A stretch of 64,000 nucleotides of DNA from a virus. The translations under genes and the position numbers were made by a program. The DNA lies in the IMG/VR virus record IMGVR_UViG_3300045922_000709, positions 1 to 64,000 of that record; one strand, 5' to 3'. Positions 1 to 59,533 of the stretch are shown one piece after another. Below the pieces are notes generated by a model. It saw only the letters and a list, made by a program, of their open reading frames with translations. It searched no databases and had not been told where the DNA came from. The stretch's first letter is position 1; each line of letters begins with the position of its first letter.

Positions 1-2
1 GT

Positions 3-44
3 GACAAAGAAGCAGGCATTGTCTGCTTCGAGTATACTCGATAA
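3..44 (+). CDS. 3' end of a small ORF truncated by the window edge (..DKEAGIVCFEYTR*)
   Basis: Open frame ending in TAA at 42-44 and followed by the same pseudoknot motif that follows other early genes. Confidence 0.3.
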   Translation, partial: DKEAGIVCFEYTR

Positions 45-65
45 GCGGAAGCGAGAAACCCCGAA

Positions 66-91
66 CGACCTCGACAAGTCGCAAAACTGTC
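66..91 (+). ncRNA. Small H-type pseudoknot motif A, copy 1
   Basis: CGAC-CT-CGACA-A-GTCG-CAAAAC-TGTC; S1 = CGAC/GTCG, S2 = GACA/TGTC. Confidence 0.6.
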
Positions 92-100
92 CACTTGATT

Positions 101-127
101 ACCTTGCCGGTAGGGTGGTTAAACCGG
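101..127 (+). ncRNA. Small H-type pseudoknot motif B, copy 1
   Basis: ACCTT-G-CCGGT-AGGGT-GGTTAA-ACCGG; S1 = ACCTT/AGGGT, S2 = CCGGT/ACCGG. Confidence 0.45.
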
Positions 128-143
128 AAAATATATAACTTAA

Positions 144-168
144 ACCTTGCGGTGAACAGGTCAACCGC
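144..168 (+). ncRNA. Small H-type pseudoknot motif B, copy 2
   Basis: ACCT-T-GCGGT-GAAC-AGGT-CA-ACCGC; S1 = ACCT/AGGT, S2 = GCGGT/ACCGC; ends 8 nt before ATG 177. Confidence 0.5.
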
Positions 169-176
169 TATATATT

Positions 177-377
177 ATGATTCAGAAATATTCTTCTGAG
201 CTCGATATCTCGAAAGATGTCGAGCTCTGCACAGGCGATGAAAAAGCAATCATCGCCTACTTACGTAAAATGGGGTATGAAAACCCCAGATTGATTTTCA
301 TTTGCGCCGAAATGGCGCATTTTGTCCACGGCCCGATACAGCTCGAGCCGTGCGACATTCCGGAAATCATATTTTAA
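177..377 (+). CDS. Hypothetical early protein (paralog of 487-690)
   Basis: DEKAIIAYLRKMGYENPRLI aligns with DEKLVKFLINLGYKEPKII. Confidence 0.75.
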   Translation: MIQKYSSELDISKDVELCTGDEKAIIAYLRKMGYENPRLIFICAEMAHFVHGPIQLEPCDIPEIIF

Positions 378-383
378 TTGCTT

Positions 384-410
384 CGACCTGAGCATGTCGT
401 TAAACTGCTC
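384..410 (+). ncRNA. Small H-type pseudoknot motif A, copy 2
   Basis: CGAC-CT-GAGCA-T-GTCG-TTAAAC-TGCTC; 6 nt after stop codon. Confidence 0.65.
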
Positions 411-486
411 ATTTTACAAAAACAAGTTACTGTCGAACGCGAAAGCGTTTATAAACCTTTTCTGTTAATGGTCAAACAGAACGCTA

Positions 487-690
487 ATGTTATTCAAAGA
501 ATATGTTAGCTCAATCAGTGTTTTAGGCACTGATTTTGAAAATATCGACGATGAAAAACTAGTCAAATTTTTGATAAATTTGGGTTATAAAGAACCTAAA
601 ATTATCAAAAAAGCCAAAAAAACCGTGAAATTTGAACACGGTAGGTTAATGATACCAGGAATGGTAATCAATAAACCTGAAAAACTGTAA
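487..690 (+). CDS. Hypothetical early protein (paralog of 177-377)
   Basis: ORF track; similarity to 177-377. Confidence 0.75.
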   Translation: MLFKEYVSSISVLGTDFENIDDEKLVKFLINLGYKEPKIIKKAKKTVKFEHGRLMIPGMVINKPEKL

Positions 691-717
691 TGTCGAACGC
701 TTTTTAATTTTTTAAAA

Positions 718-1536
718 ATGATTGTCAACGAAACCATCAACAGCATGCTCACTGAAGAAGAGTATGTTTATTCTCCTGTACTCCGAGAGTACATCGAGAT
801 ATTGTCTGTCGAAGACGAGCACGGCGCGCACGTAGCTCGTGACCAGTTTGGAATGTTCCATGTCGATTCTAAGTACAATCCGCTGTATGTTCAGCGGTTT
901 GACAAAGTCGGCTGCTTTAATTCGACTGCAACAACTGTAGCCGAATTAAATGGAGAGCAATTCCATATTAATTTTCAAGGCGAAGCCCTTTATAGCAAAC
1001 GATTTTGGTTTGCCGAACCATTTGAGTTTGGCGTTGCAATTGTTATTCAAGATGGTAAATACTTCTTGATTAACATGGACGCGGAGCGTGTGTCAATCGA
1101 TTTTGAAAAAATCGATAAATTCAACTCGATTGGAATTGCTGTTGCCCAATACGATGGTAAACAATTTCACATCGACACAAACGGAAATCCAATTTATGAT
1201 TTTCGTTTTGACAAAGTTGATCGTTTCAACGAAAGTGGAACGGCTGTTGCAACGTTAAATGGAAAACAATTCCATATAAACTTTTTTGGTAAAGCAATTT
1301 ACCAAGAAAGGTTCGACAAAGCTCGTCCATTTGTCAATGGATTTGCAGTTGTTGATGTAAATGGAGAAAGATTCCATATCGACTTTTCGGGTAAAGCAAT
1401 TTACTCGAAAAAATTCGATTATGTGTCAGATTTCAACCCATCAAACTCAAAATTCCCATTTTTTAACGCTTATGCGAAAAAAAATGAGGAATGTTTCTTC
1501 ATTAACCCACAAGGTGAAGAGTTTGACATTTGTTAA
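718..1536 (+). CDS. WG-repeat (WG_beta_rep/KWG-like) protein, type A
   Basis: About six ~37-aa repeats: FHIxxxGxxIYxxRFDxVxxFxxGxAVV. Confidence 0.85.
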   Translation: MIVNETINSMLTEEEYVYSPVLREYIEILSVEDEHGAHVARDQFGMFHVDSKYNPLYVQRFDKVGCFNSTATTVAELNGEQFHINFQGEALYSKRFWFAEPFEFGVAIVIQDGKYFLINMDAERVSIDFEKIDKFNSIGIAVAQYDGKQFHIDTNGNPIYDFRFDKVDRFNESGTAVATLNGKQFHINFFGKAIYQERFDKARPFVNGFAVVDVNGERFHIDFSGKAIYSKKFDYVSDFNPSNSKFPFFNAYAKKNEECFFINPQGEEFDIC

Positions 1537-1541
1537 ATAAT

Positions 1542-1568
1542 CGACCTAGGCACGTCGTTAAAAGGCCC
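1542..1568 (+). ncRNA. Small H-type pseudoknot motif A, copy 3
   Basis: CGAC-CT-AGGCA-C-GTCG-TTAAAA-GGCCC; 5 nt after stop 1536 and 7 nt before ATG 1576. Confidence 0.55.
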
Positions 1569-1575
1569 AATTTTT

Positions 1576-1746
1576 ATGGAAGAGGAAATTATCGATAAAC
1601 TTTTGCTTAATATTAAGCTTAATTCAAAATTGACTAAACTTCTTACACCACAAGAAGTTTACGAATTTGAAAAAATGCTTAAAAGCAAAACGCTGACTTT
1701 CCAAAATTCAATTTTGGAAAAGTTTATTGTCGAACGCGAAAATTAA
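1576..1746 (+). CDS. Hypothetical protein, 56 aa (MEEEIIDKLL...FIVEREN), absent from ORF track
   Basis: Translated by hand; fills the intergenic gap. Confidence 0.65.
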   Translation: MEEEIIDKLLLNIKLNSKLTKLLTPQEVYEFEKMLKSKTLTFQNSILEKFIVEREN

Positions 1747-1780
1747 TTTTAACTTTTAACTTTTAACTTTTAACTTTTAA
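1747..1780. repeat. Tandem TTTTAAC heptamer, about 4.5 copies
   Basis: Seen directly upstream of ATG 1783. Confidence 0.7.
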
Positions 1781-1782
1781 TT

Positions 1783-1956
1783 ATGTCGGATAAAGTGATT
1801 GAAGGTTTTGAAAAATCTTTAGCAGCTTTGGATAGGTTTAAAACAATTGTACCTGTTAATCTGCAAAAAGAAATTCAAATGAAGGTTGTGCAAAAAGCTT
1901 TCGACTTAAAAATAAATCTTTTGTCAAGATATATTGAAAGTCGAGAAAAAAATTAA
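1783..1956 (+). CDS. Hypothetical protein, 57 aa (MSDKVIEGFE...YIESREKN), absent from ORF track
   Basis: Translated by hand; T-rich leader. Confidence 0.65.
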   Translation: MSDKVIEGFEKSLAALDRFKTIVPVNLQKEIQMKVVQKAFDLKINLLSRYIESREKN

Positions 1957-2011
1957 TTTTTCTTTTTCTTTTCTTTTTTCTTTTCTTTTTTCATTTTTCA
2001 TTTTTAAAACC

Positions 2012-2191
2012 ATGTATTGTAATAATAAAACGCATGAACAACAGTTCATTGATATTTGTCAAAAGCTCGAAACTCTTTTTAATTTTGAAGAGCTTGACGA
2101 AATAATGAACGAAGTCGACGTTAAATATTTCAATTTCTTTATTGAAGAACTCACTAAAGAAACGGAACCTTATAAATTACACGAAAACTAA
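2012..2191 (+). CDS. Hypothetical acidic protein (start moved to ATG 2012)
   Basis: The track's 5' extension overlaps the upstream ORF and runs through a pyrimidine-rich spacer. Confidence 0.6.
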   Translation: MYCNNKTHEQQFIDICQKLETLFNFEELDEIMNEVDVKYFNFFIEELTKETEPYKLHEN

Positions 2192-2202
2192 ACCAACCTT
2201 AA

Positions 2203-2268
2203 GCCGAAACAAGAGATTTTATCTCTTGTCTATTCAGAGTAGTGTCTGAATACTGACGATGGCAGCTA
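2203..2268 (+). ncRNA. Type II hammerhead ribozyme; predicted cleavage after GUC (C2230)
   Basis: GCC-GAAA-[CAAGAGAT ttt ATCTCTTG]-TC-[TATTCAGA gtagtg TCTGAATA]-CTGACGA-T-GGC: full core (GAAA, GUC, CUGANGA) with perfect stems III and I. Confidence 0.9.
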
Positions 2269-2290
2269 AATGATTTGGAATAATAGTTAG

Positions 2291-2318
2291 TGGGGTGGCT
2301 TATAGCCACCTCATTTTT
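2291..2318 (+). terminator. Intrinsic terminator
   Basis: TGGGGTGGCT-TAT-AGCCACCTCA followed by a T-run. Confidence 0.75.
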
Positions 2319-2388
2319 ATTTTTCAACTTAATTTATTTTTATATTTTTTTCTAAAATTTAAAATTTTAACGTTATTTTGAATAATTT

Positions 2389-2652
2389 ATGAAAAAATAC
2401 ATGAAAAGGTCTCAATTTCTAAAAGAATTATCGGATTGGGGTCATGTAATTCAAGTTTCTGTTTTATTTGAAGACAAAAATAATGTCGAACGCGAAAAAA
2501 TAATATGGTGTGATGGTTGGGGTTATTTTCGTAAAGATATTATTGCTGGCCCTACTATTCCAATTAGAGTATGGAGATTAGCTAAAACCTACGGATATAA
2601 AATTTGTATTAAAAGTTCTTATTTAAATAGAAACGAAATTTATTACATTTAA
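2389..2652 (+). CDS. Hypothetical protein
   Basis: ORF track; AT-rich leader. Confidence 0.65.
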   Translation: MKKYMKRSQFLKELSDWGHVIQVSVLFEDKNNVEREKIIWCDGWGYFRKDIIAGPTIPIRVWRLAKTYGYKICIKSSYLNRNEIYYI

Positions 2653-3749: not shown

Positions 3750-3834
3750 GCTTTGGTGGTGGAATGGTAGACACGACAGACTTAAAATCTGTTTCTCTGT
3801 AAAGAGAGTGCGGGTTCGACTCCCGCCCAAAGTA
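3750..3834 (+). tRNA. tRNA-Leu (anticodon TAA)
   Basis: Acceptor GCTTTGG/CCAAAGT, anticodon arm ACAGA-CTTAAAA-TCTGT, long variable arm, T arm GCGGG-TTCGACT-CCCGC; CCA not encoded. Confidence 0.92.
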
Positions 3835-3837
3835 CTT

Positions 3838-4036: not shown

Positions 4037-4110
4037 TGAAGAATAGCTCAATTGGATAGAGCATCGGTCTTCTAAACCGACGGTTATGGGTTCGAGTCCC
4101 ATTTCTTCAA
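4037..4110 (+). tRNA. tRNA-Arg (anticodon TCT)
   Basis: Acceptor TGAAGAA/TTCTTCA, anticodon arm TCGGT-CTTCTAA-ACCGA, T arm ATGGG-TTCGAGT-CCCAT. Confidence 0.92.
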
Positions 4111-4132
4111 CTTTTAATTTAACTTTATTTTT

Positions 4133-7267: not shown

Positions 7268-7292
7268 AAAAGGGGGAGAAATCCCCCTTTTT
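7268..7292 (+). terminator. Intrinsic terminator
   Basis: AAAGGGGGA-GAAA-TCCCCCTTTTT. Confidence 0.8.
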
Positions 7293-7307: not shown

Positions 7308-7769
7308 ATGGAACCTGTCGAACGCGATAATAAAATTAAAAATGATTTATATATTTCAAAAAAAGCAAAAATGTATTTAATAGAAAATGTAAATTTTGAG
7401 ATAACAATTGATGAAGAGTATTTTAGAAAAAGAGACATTTGGCTCAACGAAATCATAAAAAATTTACATAAAAATAAAGAATTATTTACATTGTCTAAAT
7501 TTTTCAACTGCATTTTTGTCGAACGCGATTGTGTTTGCAATTCAAAAATAATTCATCGTTTAAATTATTTTCATAAAGTTATCGATTTCAATTTATGTTT
7601 TGAAATATATGATACATCAATAATTTTAAAAGTAAATAACTTAATTATATTTGAAAATGAAGTTTATAATTTTAAAAATTTTAGACTTTTTTATAAAAAC
7701 TTTTTAAATTTTTTAAAACAGGATTTGTCGAACGCATATCTTTCAGATTTAAATTCTGATTTAAATTAA
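7308..7769 (+). CDS. Hypothetical protein (contains 3 TGTCGAACGC copies)
   Basis: ORF track. Confidence 0.6.
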   Translation: MEPVERDNKIKNDLYISKKAKMYLIENVNFEITIDEEYFRKRDIWLNEIIKNLHKNKELFTLSKFFNCIFVERDCVCNSKIIHRLNYFHKVIDFNLCFEIYDTSIILKVNNLIIFENEVYNFKNFRLFYKNFLNFLKQDLSNAYLSDLNSDLN

Positions 7770-55021: not shown

Positions 55022-58000
55022 TCATCTTAAATTACGTCTAAAAATATTAATTGTATTTATTAAAGTAAACTTATGGTCTTTATTTCTTTCGTTGTTAAAT
55101 ATCAATTTTTCTATTAAATATTTTCCTTTAAATCTTGCAGGTATTCGTTGATAATCTGGTAAATTATTTAATAAATTATATATTGTTTCAGAATATTTCA
55201 CGTTATTTAATATATCAAATATATTTAAATTATTATCTGAAGTTGCTGAAAAAGGTATTTTTATTTGATATTGAGAATTTGTATAATTAACATTATATTC
55301 AAATATATTATATTGCGGCTGAGATTTATCTACAACTTTTAAATCAACTATGCCGGAATATTGTTTTTCGTTAAAACATTCAAGTTTATAGAAAAAATTT
55401 AAAAATTTAACCAATTGATCTGAATTTCTAAATTCACAATTTACAATTATATTATCAAAAGTTTTACTTAAAGCAGGATCACCATTCGATACATATGTTA
55501 TATACGAGTCATAAAAATTATTTATATAATACCCCATGCGTTTTCTATCTGTTTCATATAAAACACCATCTCTTGTTATATAAAATTTATTATTTAAAAA
55601 ATAAGAAAGAGCTGGTGTATAATCATGAAAACTAGTCCATGTTTTTGTAAATAATGAATATGAAATAGTTTCATCTTTTATTTTAAATATAATTCGTCTA
55701 TTTGAGGGATCATATAAAGATAAAATACCATTGTTTATTTGTGTTTTATTTTCTATTTTATCTTTTAATAAATTTTGAAAATAATTAAATAATCCTTGCT
55801 CTGAAATTTCTTCAGGTGCATTACCATTAAAATAAAAAATCTTTTGCTGTAAATTGTCTACAAAAAAAACACCAAAAGGTGTGTTTAACACACTTCTGTC
55901 GTGAAGTGTTCCGCAATAACCTCCTTTTATATTATATATTTGATTCGGAGGCAATGCTAAAACACCACCAGTGCCTAAAATAAGCTCATTGGTTGTGCTT
56001 GGAACAATCGCCTTATCGTTGACAAAGGTTCTCCATAAAGACCGCTCTGTGTGGCAATAAAGTGTATTATTAAAATCAAATAAACTTGTTATTTGTCCTT
56101 TGTCTTTTGGAATTTCTTGAAAATTATTTGGTAAAAAATATTTGTATTTATCTGATTGTTCTTGTTCAATTGAATTTAAAGAATACACAATCCTGTTAGG
56201 AAATTCGACAATGTCGATTAAACCAAAAGGTTTTAATATAAATTTTTTAATTTCATTTTCTTTAGAGTATTGTATATTGTAACCAGAAGAATTACCCATT
56301 TCGGATTCATAATCTAAACAAGCAACTATATCATTTTTTGGATAATAAGGTACACCTGATTTAATTACATTTCCGTCGTTATCTCTTTCTACAGGTCGAT
56401 GTCGATATGCGCAATTTATATCTGATTCTACCGGTAAATAATGAAGCATTCTAAGTTCAGCACCGTTTTTATTAAATAATCTAAACCAACCACCATTCAT
56501 TTCGCCTGAAATTAACGGATCGTCTCCATAAGGCATTTTATAATCTTCGCCGCTCCATGCTACATAAGAGTTTCTATAATTAATTCTAATTGAATTTCTA
56601 TATGAAAACATAGAAATAAAAGTATCTCCATTATAACACAACAAACTATTTTTAATTTTTCTTAATCTTGTATTTATAGGAGTGTTTGTATAAAAAGTAT
56701 CTACTAAAATATATTCATTAGCATCTAATTCGCCATATTGACTTTTGTTTTCAGATTCTATCGAATATAAATATCTATAAGCATTTAATCCTGAATCTTT
56801 TTTAGCAATGGTTTCATTAGAAGGAATAGATGTATTAGTATCTAAATAATATAATGCATTTGCACCTGCAAGTTTATTTTTATCATTGTTTATTTCAAAA
56901 TTAGTAAAACAATCGTCAGGCCAAGTTTCTGCACCATCATTATTATGATAAGTTACACCTATTGAAGCTAAAATACCCCCTTCATATTCACTTTTATATA
57001 AATCTTTATCTAATTCCATGACAACTGACGATTCAGTGTCATACATATTTAAAGGATATTTACCTTTTATAATAGTGTTTAAGTTAGTAAATGTTTCAGG
57101 CCCTCTTATTTCACCATTAGATTGAGCATATTGATAAGAAGAAATAATATTTGTTTTATTTATAAATTTTGAATAAAATTTAATAGGATTTAACCATTGA
57201 CCAAACATATGAAAATACGGAGACCTTGGCGTTAAACTTAAAGGAAATTTAACGTCATCAGAATAATTACCTCTACTTAAATCATAAGCTGTTAATTTAA
57301 AATTAGGTGGTAAATCACCCGATGTTCCTGCATCAGCAGATGTAATGGTTCTTTTTTCATCAAATACTTCAGAAACAAAAGACGATAAATCAGCCACCGG
57401 TTTTAATCTACAACCATTTGGTATTTGAAAGTTTTTTTCTAAAAATACAGTTTCAGGGCTATAAAAAAATATAGAAGACCTGGCTATTGGATCAATTGAT
57501 TCAAACACAAAAGTCCCCACAGGTTCTTTTTGAGGAAATATTCCGTTATATTTTATTAAATCGTTAGGGTGACCGGGAAAATAAGTGTCATTTGAACCTG
57601 TGCCAATTTTAAAATATACTCGAGTCCCTATTTGACCTGAGATAAAATTATATCTTATTTGACCATTAATAAAAAATACAGCATTATAATCAACTATTAA
57701 AGTTTTACCAAAAAAAGGATTTTGTATTAAACTTGCTTTGTAATCTGTAACATCTTTGTCTCTATTTGAAACTCTTTTTTCTTTATCTTCTGTAGTTTTA
57801 AAAGATTCAAAATCACTATCGTCAGATCTAAAAACATTTGGTATAACCCCATCTTGCAACAACATATCGTTAGCAAAACCTTGTGAATACACACTTTTAT
57901 GACTAAATGTGTTTCTTTGTTGTCTTACTAAAGATATAGATTCAATTTGATCTTTAATTGAAGGATATTGGTCTAATATATCTTCTAAGTTTTTAATAAC

Positions 58001-59533
58001 AATACCTATTGGTCTTGCTTTAATAGGTTCTATATCAAAAGGGTTTAGACTTCTAGTAAAAAAAGGTAATTGCTCATTGTCAGGAATAGTCCAATGCCTA
58101 ATACCTTGGCCATATAAATCAGCACCTGTGAATTTATCAAAATAATAATCTTTTTCATTATATTTTACTGAAGAAATATAAGTGTTTAAAGGCCCTGTTT
58201 GAACATCTAAAGAATCATTAAATGAAAAATTTCTTATTATAAAACCAGCGTCTGATATATCGCTAAAAGGCTGATTAATAGATTCTCCCGGTCTTACGTC
58301 AGCAGGTATATGATGAACAAAAGTTTCTTCTCCTGTTTTTAGTTTAGCTACAATACCGAAGCTATATGTTTCTCCTCTTCTATATCCTTTTTTAAAATAA
58401 GTGTAATTTTCAAATTTATATAAAGGTTTTGCTTTAGTATTTAATGAAATTAAAGCTTCTTTTTCATAAAGCCATTCTAATTCTAATCTATTAGCTATTA
58501 ATTGCAAATCTACTTGTGATTTCTTTTTTAAATTAGCTAAAAACAATATGTTGTCTTTTTGAATTATATGAGCAGCACTTGAATAAATTGTTCTTATATC
58601 TGCAATTTGTTCAACTGTTAATTTCTCATCTTTTAATAATCCATCGAAAGTAACATTCATAGAAGATCCTTCTATAATTTTTCTTGCAAATATTGAAGAT
58701 TGAAAAGAAGAATCTCCACCAGTAAAATAAATTACAGCAATCTCTAAATATTTATAGTTTTCGTCAATGTTTTCTATATTAAGTTTTATAGATTTTGATA
58801 CAGGGGGTGCATCGAAATTTTCACCATCGTAATTTTGCCAATCTTCATCTGGGTTTTCATTAACAATAGGTATTATGTTTGTAACATAACCAAATCCTGT
58901 AGGGTCTAAATTTTCATTTAAATATCTTGCTGTAAACTGATAAACCCCGCATTTTAATTGACCGCCTTCTACAATCTTATCTAAAAATATATGAGGATAT
59001 TTATAGTTGTCTTGAAGTCTTAATTGATTACTAAGTTGTCTAAATTTTTCAACCGTATAATCTTTGTTTATGTTTATAACCCTTGGATAATTTAAATTAT
59101 CAACAAAATATACTAATATTTGACCATTAAAATCTTTTTTAGCTGTTGAATTAATATGATAATTTATATCGAAATTTAATCTTTGTTCAGGGTCTATAAA
59201 TCCATTTAACCAATAAATTGAGTCTAAATCATCTACAACAATATTGTAAATATTATTTTGTATATAACCTATTTGAGAAGAAAATTCAGATTTAGAAAAT
59301 ATAACAATTATGTCATCAATCTGACAAAATCCTAAAATAATTGAATTAGGTCTTTTTAAATTAAAATCACTATATATTTTAAAACCTTCTTCATTAGATA
59401 AAGAATAAGTTGAAGATCCATCGAGACTATTTAACACTACATTTCGAGCATCTACATATTGAGATTGATTTATTAGAGATGGGTGAACATCTTTATTTAA
59501 ACCTTTTTCAAAAGAATTTACATGATGATTCAT
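55022..59533 (-). CDS. Tail stabilization / muzzle protein (P22 gp10-like, crAss Tstab)
   Basis: N-terminal NSFxKGLNKD...YxDAxN; YNGDTFI; TWTSFHDY; synteny. Confidence 0.8.
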   Translation of the reverse strand: MNHHVNSFEKGLNKDVHPSLINQSQYVDARNVVLNSLDGSSTYSLSNEEGFKIYSDFNLKRPNSIILGFCQIDDIIVIFSKSEFSSQIGYIQNNIYNIVVDDLDSIYWLNGFIDPEQRLNFDINYHINSTAKKDFNGQILVYFVDNLNYPRVININKDYTVEKFRQLSNQLRLQDNYKYPHIFLDKIVEGGQLKCGVYQFTARYLNENLDPTGFGYVTNIIPIVNENPDEDWQNYDGENFDAPPVSKSIKLNIENIDENYKYLEIAVIYFTGGDSSFQSSIFARKIIEGSSMNVTFDGLLKDEKLTVEQIADIRTIYSSAAHIIQKDNILFLANLKKKSQVDLQLIANRLELEWLYEKEALISLNTKAKPLYKFENYTYFKKGYRRGETYSFGIVAKLKTGEETFVHHIPADVRPGESINQPFSDISDAGFIIRNFSFNDSLDVQTGPLNTYISSVKYNEKDYYFDKFTGADLYGQGIRHWTIPDNEQLPFFTRSLNPFDIEPIKARPIGIVIKNLEDILDQYPSIKDQIESISLVRQQRNTFSHKSVYSQGFANDMLLQDGVIPNVFRSDDSDFESFKTTEDKEKRVSNRDKDVTDYKASLIQNPFFGKTLIVDYNAVFFINGQIRYNFISGQIGTRVYFKIGTGSNDTYFPGHPNDLIKYNGIFPQKEPVGTFVFESIDPIARSSIFFYSPETVFLEKNFQIPNGCRLKPVADLSSFVSEVFDEKRTITSADAGTSGDLPPNFKLTAYDLSRGNYSDDVKFPLSLTPRSPYFHMFGQWLNPIKFYSKFINKTNIISSYQYAQSNGEIRGPETFTNLNTIIKGKYPLNMYDTESSVVMELDKDLYKSEYEGGILASIGVTYHNNDGAETWPDDCFTNFEINNDKNKLAGANALYYLDTNTSIPSNETIAKKDSGLNAYRYLYSIESENKSQYGELDANEYILVDTFYTNTPINTRLRKIKNSLLCYNGDTFISMFSYRNSIRINYRNSYVAWSGEDYKMPYGDDPLISGEMNGGWFRLFNKNGAELRMLHYLPVESDINCAYRHRPVERDNDGNVIKSGVPYYPKNDIVACLDYESEMGNSSGYNIQYSKENEIKKFILKPFGLIDIVEFPNRIVYSLNSIEQEQSDKYKYFLPNNFQEIPKDKGQITSLFDFNNTLYCHTERSLWRTFVNDKAIVPSTTNELILGTGGVLALPPNQIYNIKGGYCGTLHDRSVLNTPFGVFFVDNLQQKIFYFNGNAPEEISEQGLFNYFQNLLKDKIENKTQINNGILSLYDPSNRRIIFKIKDETISYSLFTKTWTSFHDYTPALSYFLNNKFYITRDGVLYETDRKRMGYYINNFYDSYITYVSNGDPALSKTFDNIIVNCEFRNSDQLVKFLNFFYKLECFNEKQYSGIVDLKVVDKSQPQYNIFEYNVNYTNSQYQIKIPFSATSDNNLNIFDILNNVKYSETIYNLLNNLPDYQRIPARFKGKYLIEKLIFNNERNKDHKFTLINTINIFRRNLR

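Follow-up and report, generated by a model that had tools for sequence, protein, structure and literature searches.

A conserved RNA pseudoknot placed just after stop codons in phage genomes, and its possible part at message ends

Near one end of the virus record IMGVR_UViG_3300045922_000709 from the IMG/VR database, a short sequence recurs behind small genes with the potential to fold into an RNA pseudoknot. The record is linear and 80,476 bp long; the window analyzed here is its first 64 kb (64,000 nucleotides [nt]). The locus raises two questions: whether this repeat is a genuine RNA structure and, if it is, what such a structure does in the spacer behind a gene. An initial annotation of the window had described three copies of a small pseudoknot with an unchanging first stem and a second stem whose changes compensate each other. 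The pattern CGACCT-N6-GTCG matched the window exactly three times, at 66, 384, and 1542, always on the + strand. Chance would yield 0.16 matches, even with one mismatch and on either strand, and none of 100 dinucleotide shuffles reached the observed count. The three repeated copies are therefore real, and the sequence reads as had been described. A fourth copy lies outside the window near the opposite end of the contig, on the + strand like the other three. The copies, with their stems (S1 and S2) and loops (L1 and L3), and a neighboring hairpin are as follows.

66 to 92, + strand: copy 1, CGAC-CU-C-GACA-A-GUCG-CAAAAC-UGUC; an exact pattern match, 30.3 bits with covariance model R1 (a training row); S1 CGAC 66-69 with GUCG 78-81, L1 CU(C), S2 GACA 73-76 with UGUC 88-91 (4 bp), L3 CAAAAC
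95 to 122, + strand: 12-bp hairpin beginning 3 nt past copy 1; RNAfold of 92-140 gives -10.3 kcal/mol
384 to 411, + strand: copy 2, CGAC-CU-GAGCA-U-GUCG-UUAAAC-UGCUC (384-410) plus an optional sixth S2 pair, U389:A411; 46.7 bits (a training row)
1542 to 1568, + strand: copy 3, CGAC-CU-AGGCA-C-GUCG-UUAAAAG-GCC, with a UUAAAAG loop variant; 21.4 bits, E=0.0135, not a training row
79771 to 79797 of the record (G000:C1:79771-79797), + strand: copy 4, ending 6 nt before an ATG

Only copy 2 has the canonical form; it is identical to the family consensus, and AUUUU follows it directly. Copies 1, 3, and 4 have 4, 3, and 4 pairs in S2, respectively, and their L3 spacers are CAAAAC, UUAAAAG, and AAAAAC in place of UUAAAC. 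In copy 3, the 3 pairs are GGC 1549-1551 with GCC 1565-1567, accompanied by an A.C mismatch, and its UUAAAAG variant is present in many other phages. All four copies carry CGAC/GUCG as S1 and a C at position 5 of the fold (C5). A generic pseudoknot descriptor run over the genome gave 0 to 8 matches per strand, no better than shuffled sequence, and was dropped for a covariance model. That model, made mainly from other phages, recovered exactly four sites in the 80.5-kb record, at 46.7, 30.3, 26.1, and 21.4 bits; the two top-scoring copies were part of its training alignment and the other two were not. A suspected fifth, tandem copy at 98-135 was better explained as the plain 12-bp hairpin listed above.

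The fold is an H-type RNA pseudoknot of 27 to 28 nt, NNNC-CU-S2a-N-GNNN-UUAAAC-S2b. A 4-bp S1 with a conserved closing C:G pair is followed by L1, which is C(U), and by an S2 of 5 to 6 bp and a 1-nt junction; L3, UUAAAC, runs along S1. We searched IMG/VR with two converse patterns, one fixing S1 and leaving S2 free (CGACCT-N6-GTCGTTAAA; at least 118 loci) and one fixing S2 and leaving S1 free (CTGAGCA-N5-TTAAACTGCTC; more than 115 loci). In nearly all of the 118 loci listed by the first scan, the five bases that follow CU can pair with the five that follow UUAAAC. The S2 variants among these listed matches include GAGCA/UGCUC, UUCCA/UGGAA, AGUUA/UAACU, GGUCA/UGACC, GGGAA/UUCCC, and others, some with G-U pairs that are workable on one strand only. 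Among the matches listed by the second scan, S1 takes the form NNNC/GNNN in more than 25 different complementary combinations. Thus, the compensated changes noticed in S2 hold well beyond this genome. The supposedly invariant S1 is invariant only within it, across its four copies; elsewhere, S1 covaries freely.

In an alignment of 126 distinct sequences, 95.5% of the cells in paired columns were paired, compared with 77.4% after shuffling, and none of 500 shuffles reached the observed value. Cells changed on both sides numbered 160, compared with 31 in the shuffles, and controls in which the pairing partner was slid along the sequence paired in 23 to 53% of cells. Columns 1 to 4 of S1 pair with columns 13 to 16; C4:G13 is present in 124 of the 126 sequences, and the second and third pairs have 27 and 34 double changes, respectively. 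The five S2 pairs are formed in 95.4% of cells, with double changes in four of the five. A sixth S2 pair, U6:A28, is possible in about 70% of the set anchored on S2, and where it forms, L1 is left with one base, the classical geometry for a loop that crosses a 6-bp deep groove. The UUAAAC spacer and C5 were imposed by both search patterns, so their invariance in alignment A3 is by construction. No Rfam 15 model, the RAGATH motifs included, overlapped any copy at gathering scores in the window and 31 related loci, and at E<=10 nothing in window 1-2400 fell on the copies, including PreQ1 and Pistol. It is thus nearly certain that this is a real and conserved RNA pseudoknot family; covariation together with the lack of an Rfam match bears out the earlier suggestion of a functional RNA outside the named families.

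The family is widely spread. Carrier contigs were assigned to Bacillota, Bacteroidota, Campylobacterota, Chloroflexota, Cyanobacteria, Patescibacteria, and alpha-, beta-, gamma-, and delta-proteobacteria, and the pseudoknot is present in phages with quite different transcription strategies and in RNA viruses. It also occurs in 85 Staphylococcus aureus phage records, between a small open reading frame (ORF) after the minor head gene and the scaffold gene. At three loci (L120:1085-1140, L095, and L063), two tandem copies stand only a few nucleotides apart, an arrangement that recalls the tandem exoribonuclease-resistant RNAs (xrRNAs) of flaviviruses. Our literature search found no paper describing the fold in phages, coremin (introduced below) in phages, or a pseudoknot after phage stop codons.

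To judge by sequence, the closest known element is coremin (xrRNA-C) with its Watson-Crick variant, xrRNA-WCC, from beny-, cucumo-, hypo-, chryso-, and picorna-like RNA viruses (Dilweg et al.; PMC10520033, PMC10321173, PMC6546385). Coremin stalls the exonuclease Xrn1 and scanning ribosomes and stimulates -1 frameshifting; its first loop base must be C or U, and for Xrn1 resistance it requires a second hairpin, hp2, directly downstream (PMC10520033, PMC10321173). The same papers make no mention of phages (PMC10520033, PMC10321173). Our first scan itself reached RNA viruses, since 12 to 15 of the 118 listed loci are RNA-virus contigs of 1.3 to 5.6 kb.

RNA-virus contigs in IMG/VR: L006, L010, L038, L046, L052, L058, L074, L091, L114, L116, L117, and others

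We describe these contigs as ourmia-like, an assignment to RNA viruses that rests on conserved motifs, a protein atlas match, and a coat-protein match. The upstream ORF has the RNA-dependent RNA polymerase (RdRp) motifs SGDYxAATD, GQLMGSxLSFPILCxxN, and NGDD and by the atlas match resembles Lenarviricota polymerases; Pfam and PDB sequence searches gave no name for these RdRp-like ORFs. Downstream, the ORF encodes a coat protein of the tombusvirus type with an S domain (PF00729, 6e-33). Between the two genes, 9 to 18 nt past the RdRp stop codon, stands the fold, followed 1 to 3 nt on by a conserved GGGGU...ACCC hairpin and by CCAAAACGGUG. One sequence signature therefore spans double-stranded DNA (dsDNA) phages and RNA viruses with the full coremin layout. 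The RNA-virus copies are probably natural elements of the xrRNA-WCC type that would make a coat-protein subgenomic RNA.

Next, we examined where the fold stands relative to genes, using 289 dereplicated copies, of which 236 have a same-strand ORF ending within 400 nt upstream. The fold begins no more than 18 nt after the upstream stop codon in 145 of these 236 (61%), compared with 11% of random non-ORF positions. The onset is sharp, with 1, 6, 37, and 18 copies at 3, 4, 5, and 6 nt after the stop codon, respectively. From there, the spacing extends over 5 to 18 nt in all three phases (62, 47, and 36 copies by remainder modulo 3). The two window copies that had been placed 5 to 6 nt behind a stop codon fit this distribution: copy 2 starts 6 nt after the TAA of ORF 177-377, and copy 3 starts 5 nt after the TAA of ORF 718-1536. 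The helicase of the ribosome works about 11 nt away from the first base in the P site (roughly +11/+12), and a 5-nt limit is what would be expected if the structure must stay folded with a ribosome on the stop codon. Many unrelated families are represented among the upstream ORFs, and the distance from the fold to the next start codon is variable.

Downstream, one kind of gene recurs. A head scaffolding protein is encoded in roughly half of the downstream ORFs scanned, and 13 of 46 match phrog_194, the commonest single PHROG family. In phage phiJB, the order is portal, minor head, fold, scaffold, and capsid, which places the fold inside a late operon. The S. aureus phages phiNM4, phiETA3, and phage 96 each have one copy between head-morphogenesis and scaffold genes. 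The phiJB record (L323, NC_028669) annotates the pseudoknot region, 1559-1599, as "putative promoter P5R," and it labels the small ORF before the pseudoknot "dCMP hydroxymethylase," which looks carried over from the PHROG name of a 68-81-aa protein. At nine loci from Firmicutes siphophages (L086, L105, L059, L066, L110, L012, L065, L076, and L072), a second small hairpin or pseudoknot lies 20 to 45 nt past the first, before the Shine-Dalgarno sequence of the scaffold gene. Its stem covaries (CGUGG/CCACG, CGCCA/UGGCG, and CGCUG/CAGCG), its loop is GCGUWG followed by UAAAA..ACG, and it had no Rfam match in the loci scanned.

What follows the fold directly was more telling. Type III hammerhead ribozymes confirmed by Rfam begin at the last base of the fold in three units of L294 and two of L239, and in all five, a GUC or GUA cleavage site lies 6 to 7 nt past it. 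Each L294 unit thus reads stop codon, 6 to 7 nt, fold, 6 to 7 nt, and cleavage site. At eight loci, the 5' end of a same-strand tRNA, which is the RNase P cut site, lies 1, 3, 4, 4, 4, 5, 6, or 7 nt past the fold. The 3' ends of upstream tRNAs called by ARAGORN are at least 16 nt from it; in Rfam, one weak tRNA match stops 6 nt short of the L008 copy. L108 has a pistol ribozyme (62.5 bits) whose first base is at +1 after the fold. Elsewhere, the stretch of 12 nt past the fold is poor in G (12% versus 22%) and less structured than controls, and a tract of at least four T's occurs within 10 nt in 57 of 234 copies (24%), compared with 10 in controls. Thus, the fold marks the upstream side of RNA cut sites, and once the RNA is cut, the preceding message would have this structure at its 3' end. 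The link to hammerheads drawn by the initial annotation holds at the level of the family, where type III hammerheads and pistol abut copies, and fails at this locus, where the nearest hammerhead is 634 nt away.

These placements lead us to a tentative reading, plausible if a little short of probable, in which the fold acts as a 3'-end shield and a punctuation mark between cistrons. The fold would sit at the very start of the intergenic region, as near to the stop codon as it can be without being melted by a terminating ribosome. The transcript would then be cut just downstream, at a hammerhead site, by RNase P at a tRNA 5' end, or within a single-stranded stretch rich in U and poor in G. The upstream message would then terminate, on its 3' side, in the fold plus a tail of 1 to 7 nt, and the compact structure, braced by loop-helix contacts, would deny 3'-to-5' exoribonucleases a foothold. 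The stop codon and the ORF would stay intact, so that each cistron would gain its own defined and stable end. The data above establish the fold, its covariation, its placement, and its neighbors; nuclease resistance, and the side from which it would act, we infer. We favor this shield because of the anatomy of the cut sites, the tie to the upstream stop codon, and the host range. The breadth of phyla, together with carrier genomes that have no RNase J above the model cut-off, fits a universal target, either 3' exonucleases or the ribosome. Among the functions first proposed for the repeat, the anatomy favors a stabilizing or punctuating 3'-end element; a pure block to 5'-to-3' exonucleases is disfavored as a universal role since the cut sites come after the fold and some genomes lack a recognizable RNase J.

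Several observations weigh against the shield. Coremin, the closest characterized relative, blocks enzymes coming from the 5' side and not the 3' side (PMC10520033, PMC10321173). An adjacent cut site can be identified in only about 5% of copies, and elsewhere, cleavage in a U-rich stretch is assumed. In tRNA arrays, the fold would be freed as a spacer that protects nothing, and since pistol cleaves near its own 3' end, the L108 fold would not lie close to the new 3' end. In the record itself, copies 3 and 4 end 6 to 7 nt before the next start codon with no recognizable cut site, S2 is weakened in three of the four copies, and no RNA runs containing window 1-2400 are listed.

The strongest competitor is a phage xrRNA in the usual sense, in which the fold would be a 5'-to-3' roadblock against RNase J, 5'-end-dependent scanning by RNase E, or Rho, and would protect or insulate the RNA downstream of it, such as the highly expressed scaffold and capsid genes. 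We regard this as rather unlikely, though it deserves serious weight. The layout is nearly that of coremin and xrRNA-WCC (PMC10520033, PMC10321173), the same search pattern retrieves the ourmia-like contigs with the fold between RdRp and coat genes and a hairpin behind it, and xrRNA folds block bacterial RNase J1 in vitro (PMC5760640). The recurrence of scaffolding genes downstream also agrees with it, as does the concentration of conservation in S1, L1, and L3, the parts that would withstand being unzipped by an enzyme coming from the 5' side. However, the fold keeps its position relative to the upstream stop codon, with no such tie to the gene downstream, and where cuts can be identified downstream, the fold would be severed from the RNA it is supposed to protect. 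The downstream hairpin that coremin requires is not enriched either; a hairpin begins 0 to 3 nt past the phage fold in 27 of 234 copies, compared with 39 and 55 in controls, and in the window, copy 1 alone has such a hairpin. Finally, no RNase J scored above the TIGR00649 cut-off in five metagenome-assembled genomes (MAGs) of carriers, whose completeness is unknown, which makes this point suggestive only.

Carriers without RNase J above the TIGR00649 cut-off: Polynucleobacter, Methylococcus, Beggiatoa, Fluviibacter, and Segatella MAGs

An element directed at the ribosome would also account for the tie to stop codons. Here, the fold would meet the mRNA entry channel while the stop codon is in the A site and would block read-through, block post-termination sliding and reinitiation, or tune termination, thereby uncoupling neighboring cistrons and keeping ribosomes off downstream structured RNAs. 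The abrupt onset at 5 nt (37 copies, and almost none closer) has the spacer geometry of frameshift-stimulating pseudoknots and agrees with the position of the ribosomal helicase given above. The ribosome, being universal, would suit the broad host range, and coremin itself acts on ribosomes, halting them as they scan and promoting -1 frameshifting (PMC10520033, PMC10321173). Yet the spacing is spread over 5 to 18 nt in all three phases, copies occur between tRNAs, where no ribosome passes, no extended ORF follows the fold, and the 5-nt limit is explained equally well by a fold that avoids being melted by the ribosome. We therefore consider a role on the ribosome improbable, and the lack of a fixed phase in the spacing led us to reject the narrower frameshift or read-through reading.

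The fold's neighbors suggest a third possibility, that of a folding insulator or processing helper. A fast-forming knot would cap the upstream sequence so that a ribozyme or tRNA can fold, and it may stack on stem III of a hammerhead or on an acceptor stem. The fold does abut type III hammerheads (gap of 0 to 1 nt), pistol (+1), and tRNAs (1 to 7 nt), and it fills the spacers of tRNA arrays. Against this, most copies have no adjacent ribozyme or tRNA, a fold 1 to 4 nt before a tRNA would be expected to hinder binding of the leader by RNase P, and the strict conservation of loop bases across phyla suggests a specific three-dimensional property and not structure of a generic kind. Such a helper thus has little probability as the general role.

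Still less probable is a preQ1-I-like aptamer, an unusual intrinsic terminator, or a hidden self-cleaving ribozyme. The P1 stem, loop pseudoknot, and A-rich linker recall preQ1-I and the 5' half of pistol, and the T tracts counted above would suit a terminator. Nevertheless, no Rfam model matches even at E<=10, and the fold is tied to the preceding stop codon and not to a regulated gene. A terminator is hard to reconcile with positions inside late operons whose downstream genes must be expressed, as in phiJB, or with a U tract in only 24% of copies; a consensus scan called no intrinsic terminator at the window copies. A ribozyme would need a catalytic core, and no conserved sequence beyond the 27 to 28 nt supplies one. 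A DNA-level signal (a repressor site, for example, or a promoter used by the virion RNA polymerase of crAss-like phages) or a chance repeat is almost certainly wrong, because, despite the clustering of copies in a presumed early region and the promoter label in the phiJB record, both stems covary with G-U pairs on one strand only, which effectively refutes a promoter, the carriers include phages of different transcription strategies and RNA viruses, and chance predicts 0.16 copies.

Judged from the genes of the record, the phage is crAss-like: ORF 55022-59533 on the - strand matches the Crassvirus muzzle protein (PF25731, 1e-77), and a 3,780-aa ORF carries DFDID, the catalytic motif of the crAss-like virion RNA polymerase (bioRxiv 10.1101/2020.03.07.982082). 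Megablast against GenBank phages found no close relatives, nor did scans seeded with two proteins, the 272-aa presumed early protein and the N-terminal part of the muzzle. Only two sequencing runs, both DNA metagenomes from hot-spring or microbial-mat material, contain window 1-2400, and this DNA may have come from them. The genes around the copies would be early genes, going by crAss-like genome layout, and a PHROG search placed the small ORFs there in no known family. The features next to the copies are as follows.

177 to 377, + strand: small ORF, 66 aa, no PHROG match; its TAA ends 6 nt before copy 2
718 to 1536, + strand: ORF, 272 aa, no PHROG match; its TAA ends 5 nt before copy 3
1576 to 1746, + strand: small ORF, 56 aa, no PHROG match; its ATG at 1576 begins 7 nt past the end of copy 3
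2202 to 2271, + strand: type II hammerhead ribozyme, Rfam RF02276 (Hammerhead_II), 48.7 bits against a gathering score of 37

This hammerhead, 634 nt downstream of copy 3, begins 10 nt past the stop codon of ORF 2013-2191 and is transcribed in the same direction as the pseudoknots; it adjoins none of them. A terminator scan placed a strong terminator-like hairpin with a U tract at 2289-2315 after it, so the hammerhead would cut the transcript just before its end. Genes for tRNA-Leu(UAA) at 3750-3835 and tRNA-Arg(UCU) at 4037-4111 lie in the early or middle region, and neither is flanked by a pseudoknot copy.

A second repeat shares this region. Ten copies of the motif TGTCGAACGC, every one on the + strand, fall between 431 and 7735; chance would give 0.39, and the rest of the 80.5-kb record has none.

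431-440, 691-700, 1728-1737, 2484-2493, 7316-7325, 7517-7526, and 7726-7735, + strand: exact copies of the motif
2958, 3311, and 5932, + strand: copies with one mismatch

Small genes begin 17 to 55 nt downstream of the motif, which also follows a terminator-like hairpin (7268-7291) at a distance of about 25 nt; the motif may be an early promoter or a 5'-leader signal of this crAss-like phage. A study of phi14:2 reportedly saw no common motif upstream of virion RNA polymerase transcripts. Two intergenic spacers of the early region hold tandem repeats, (TTTTAAC)n and a pyrimidine-rich CTTTT type, at window positions 1747-1780 and 1957-2005. Four 38-nt tandem repeats lie at the contig end (L004:2046-2206, corresponding to G000:C1:80316-80476), and they are probably why the assembly broke there.

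Taken together, these results raise the possibility, which we still hold to be doubtful, that phages of most bacterial phyla and eukaryotic RNA viruses share the coremin fold and that in phages it punctuates or protects message ends. If that were true, it would be the first prokaryotic counterpart of the nuclease-resistant RNAs of viruses, and it would carry the concept of xrRNAs beyond the RNA viruses of eukaryotes, into bacteria. It would explain how each gene in a long phage transcript obtains its own stable end, and it would supply a portable 27-nt stabilizer, a tiny host-independent module for the control of mRNA stability. Should the function hold, a 27-nt fold outside Rfam would have gone unnoticed in a great many phage genomes. 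The window itself adds a crAss-like phage to the carriers of the family.

Among known systems, the pseudoknots of luteovirus -1 frameshifting (beet western yellows virus [BWYV] and potato leafroll virus [PLRV]) and of murine leukemia virus (MuLV) read-through are compact and H-type; their L1 is short, their L3 is A-rich and lies in the S1 minor groove, and a spacer of 5 to 9 nt separates them from the decoding site. The phage fold shares their dimensions, including the 5-nt minimum spacing from the stop codon. Unlike them, it has neither a slippery site nor an extended frame, its distance from the stop codon takes any of the three phases, and some copies stand between tRNAs; UUAAAC itself contains UAA. 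With the 5' domain of Pistol (RF02679) and with preQ1-I (RF00522), the fold has in common a hairpin loop that pairs downstream, past an A-rich linker set directly after the 3' strand of the stem. Unlike these two, it has no P2 or P3, cleavage site, or ligand-binding consensus, its genomic placement is different, and neither model matches it at E<=10. Stabilizers at 3' termini, such as terminator hairpins and repetitive extragenic palindromic (REP) elements, stand after ORFs, stop 3'-to-5' exonucleases, and set the stability of cistrons in processed polycistronic RNA. These are plain G+C-rich hairpins with no fixed sequence, whereas the phage element is a 27-nt pseudoknot with loop bases conserved across phyla.

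Coremin comes nearest. It reads C-GUC-C-GAA-GAC-G-UUAAAC-UAC, with a loop-spacer interaction that is Watson-Crick in xrRNA-WCC (PMC10520033, PMC10321173), and its phage counterpart has the consensus NNNC-CU-NNNNA-N-GNNN-UUAAAC-UNNNN. In each, the first hairpin has 4 bp and a closing C:G pair, the second and third S1 pairs vary, and the first loop base is C. The bases after the spacer, whose UUAAAC was fixed by the search patterns in the phage set, pair with the loop to give an H-type pseudoknot. The two differ in S2, which has 5 to 6 Watson-Crick pairs in phages and 3, often noncanonical, in coremin, and in the loop, which is 8 nt in phages and a 4-6-nt YGAD or YGNNAD loop in coremin. They differ also in setting, since coremin is found in RNA viruses and the phage copies lie in dsDNA phages and prophages, after stop codons and upstream of cut sites. 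We did not class the phage element as coremin, because hp2, a defining feature, fails. These likenesses of sequence and layout suggest instead that it is probably a variant that shares coremin's core fold.

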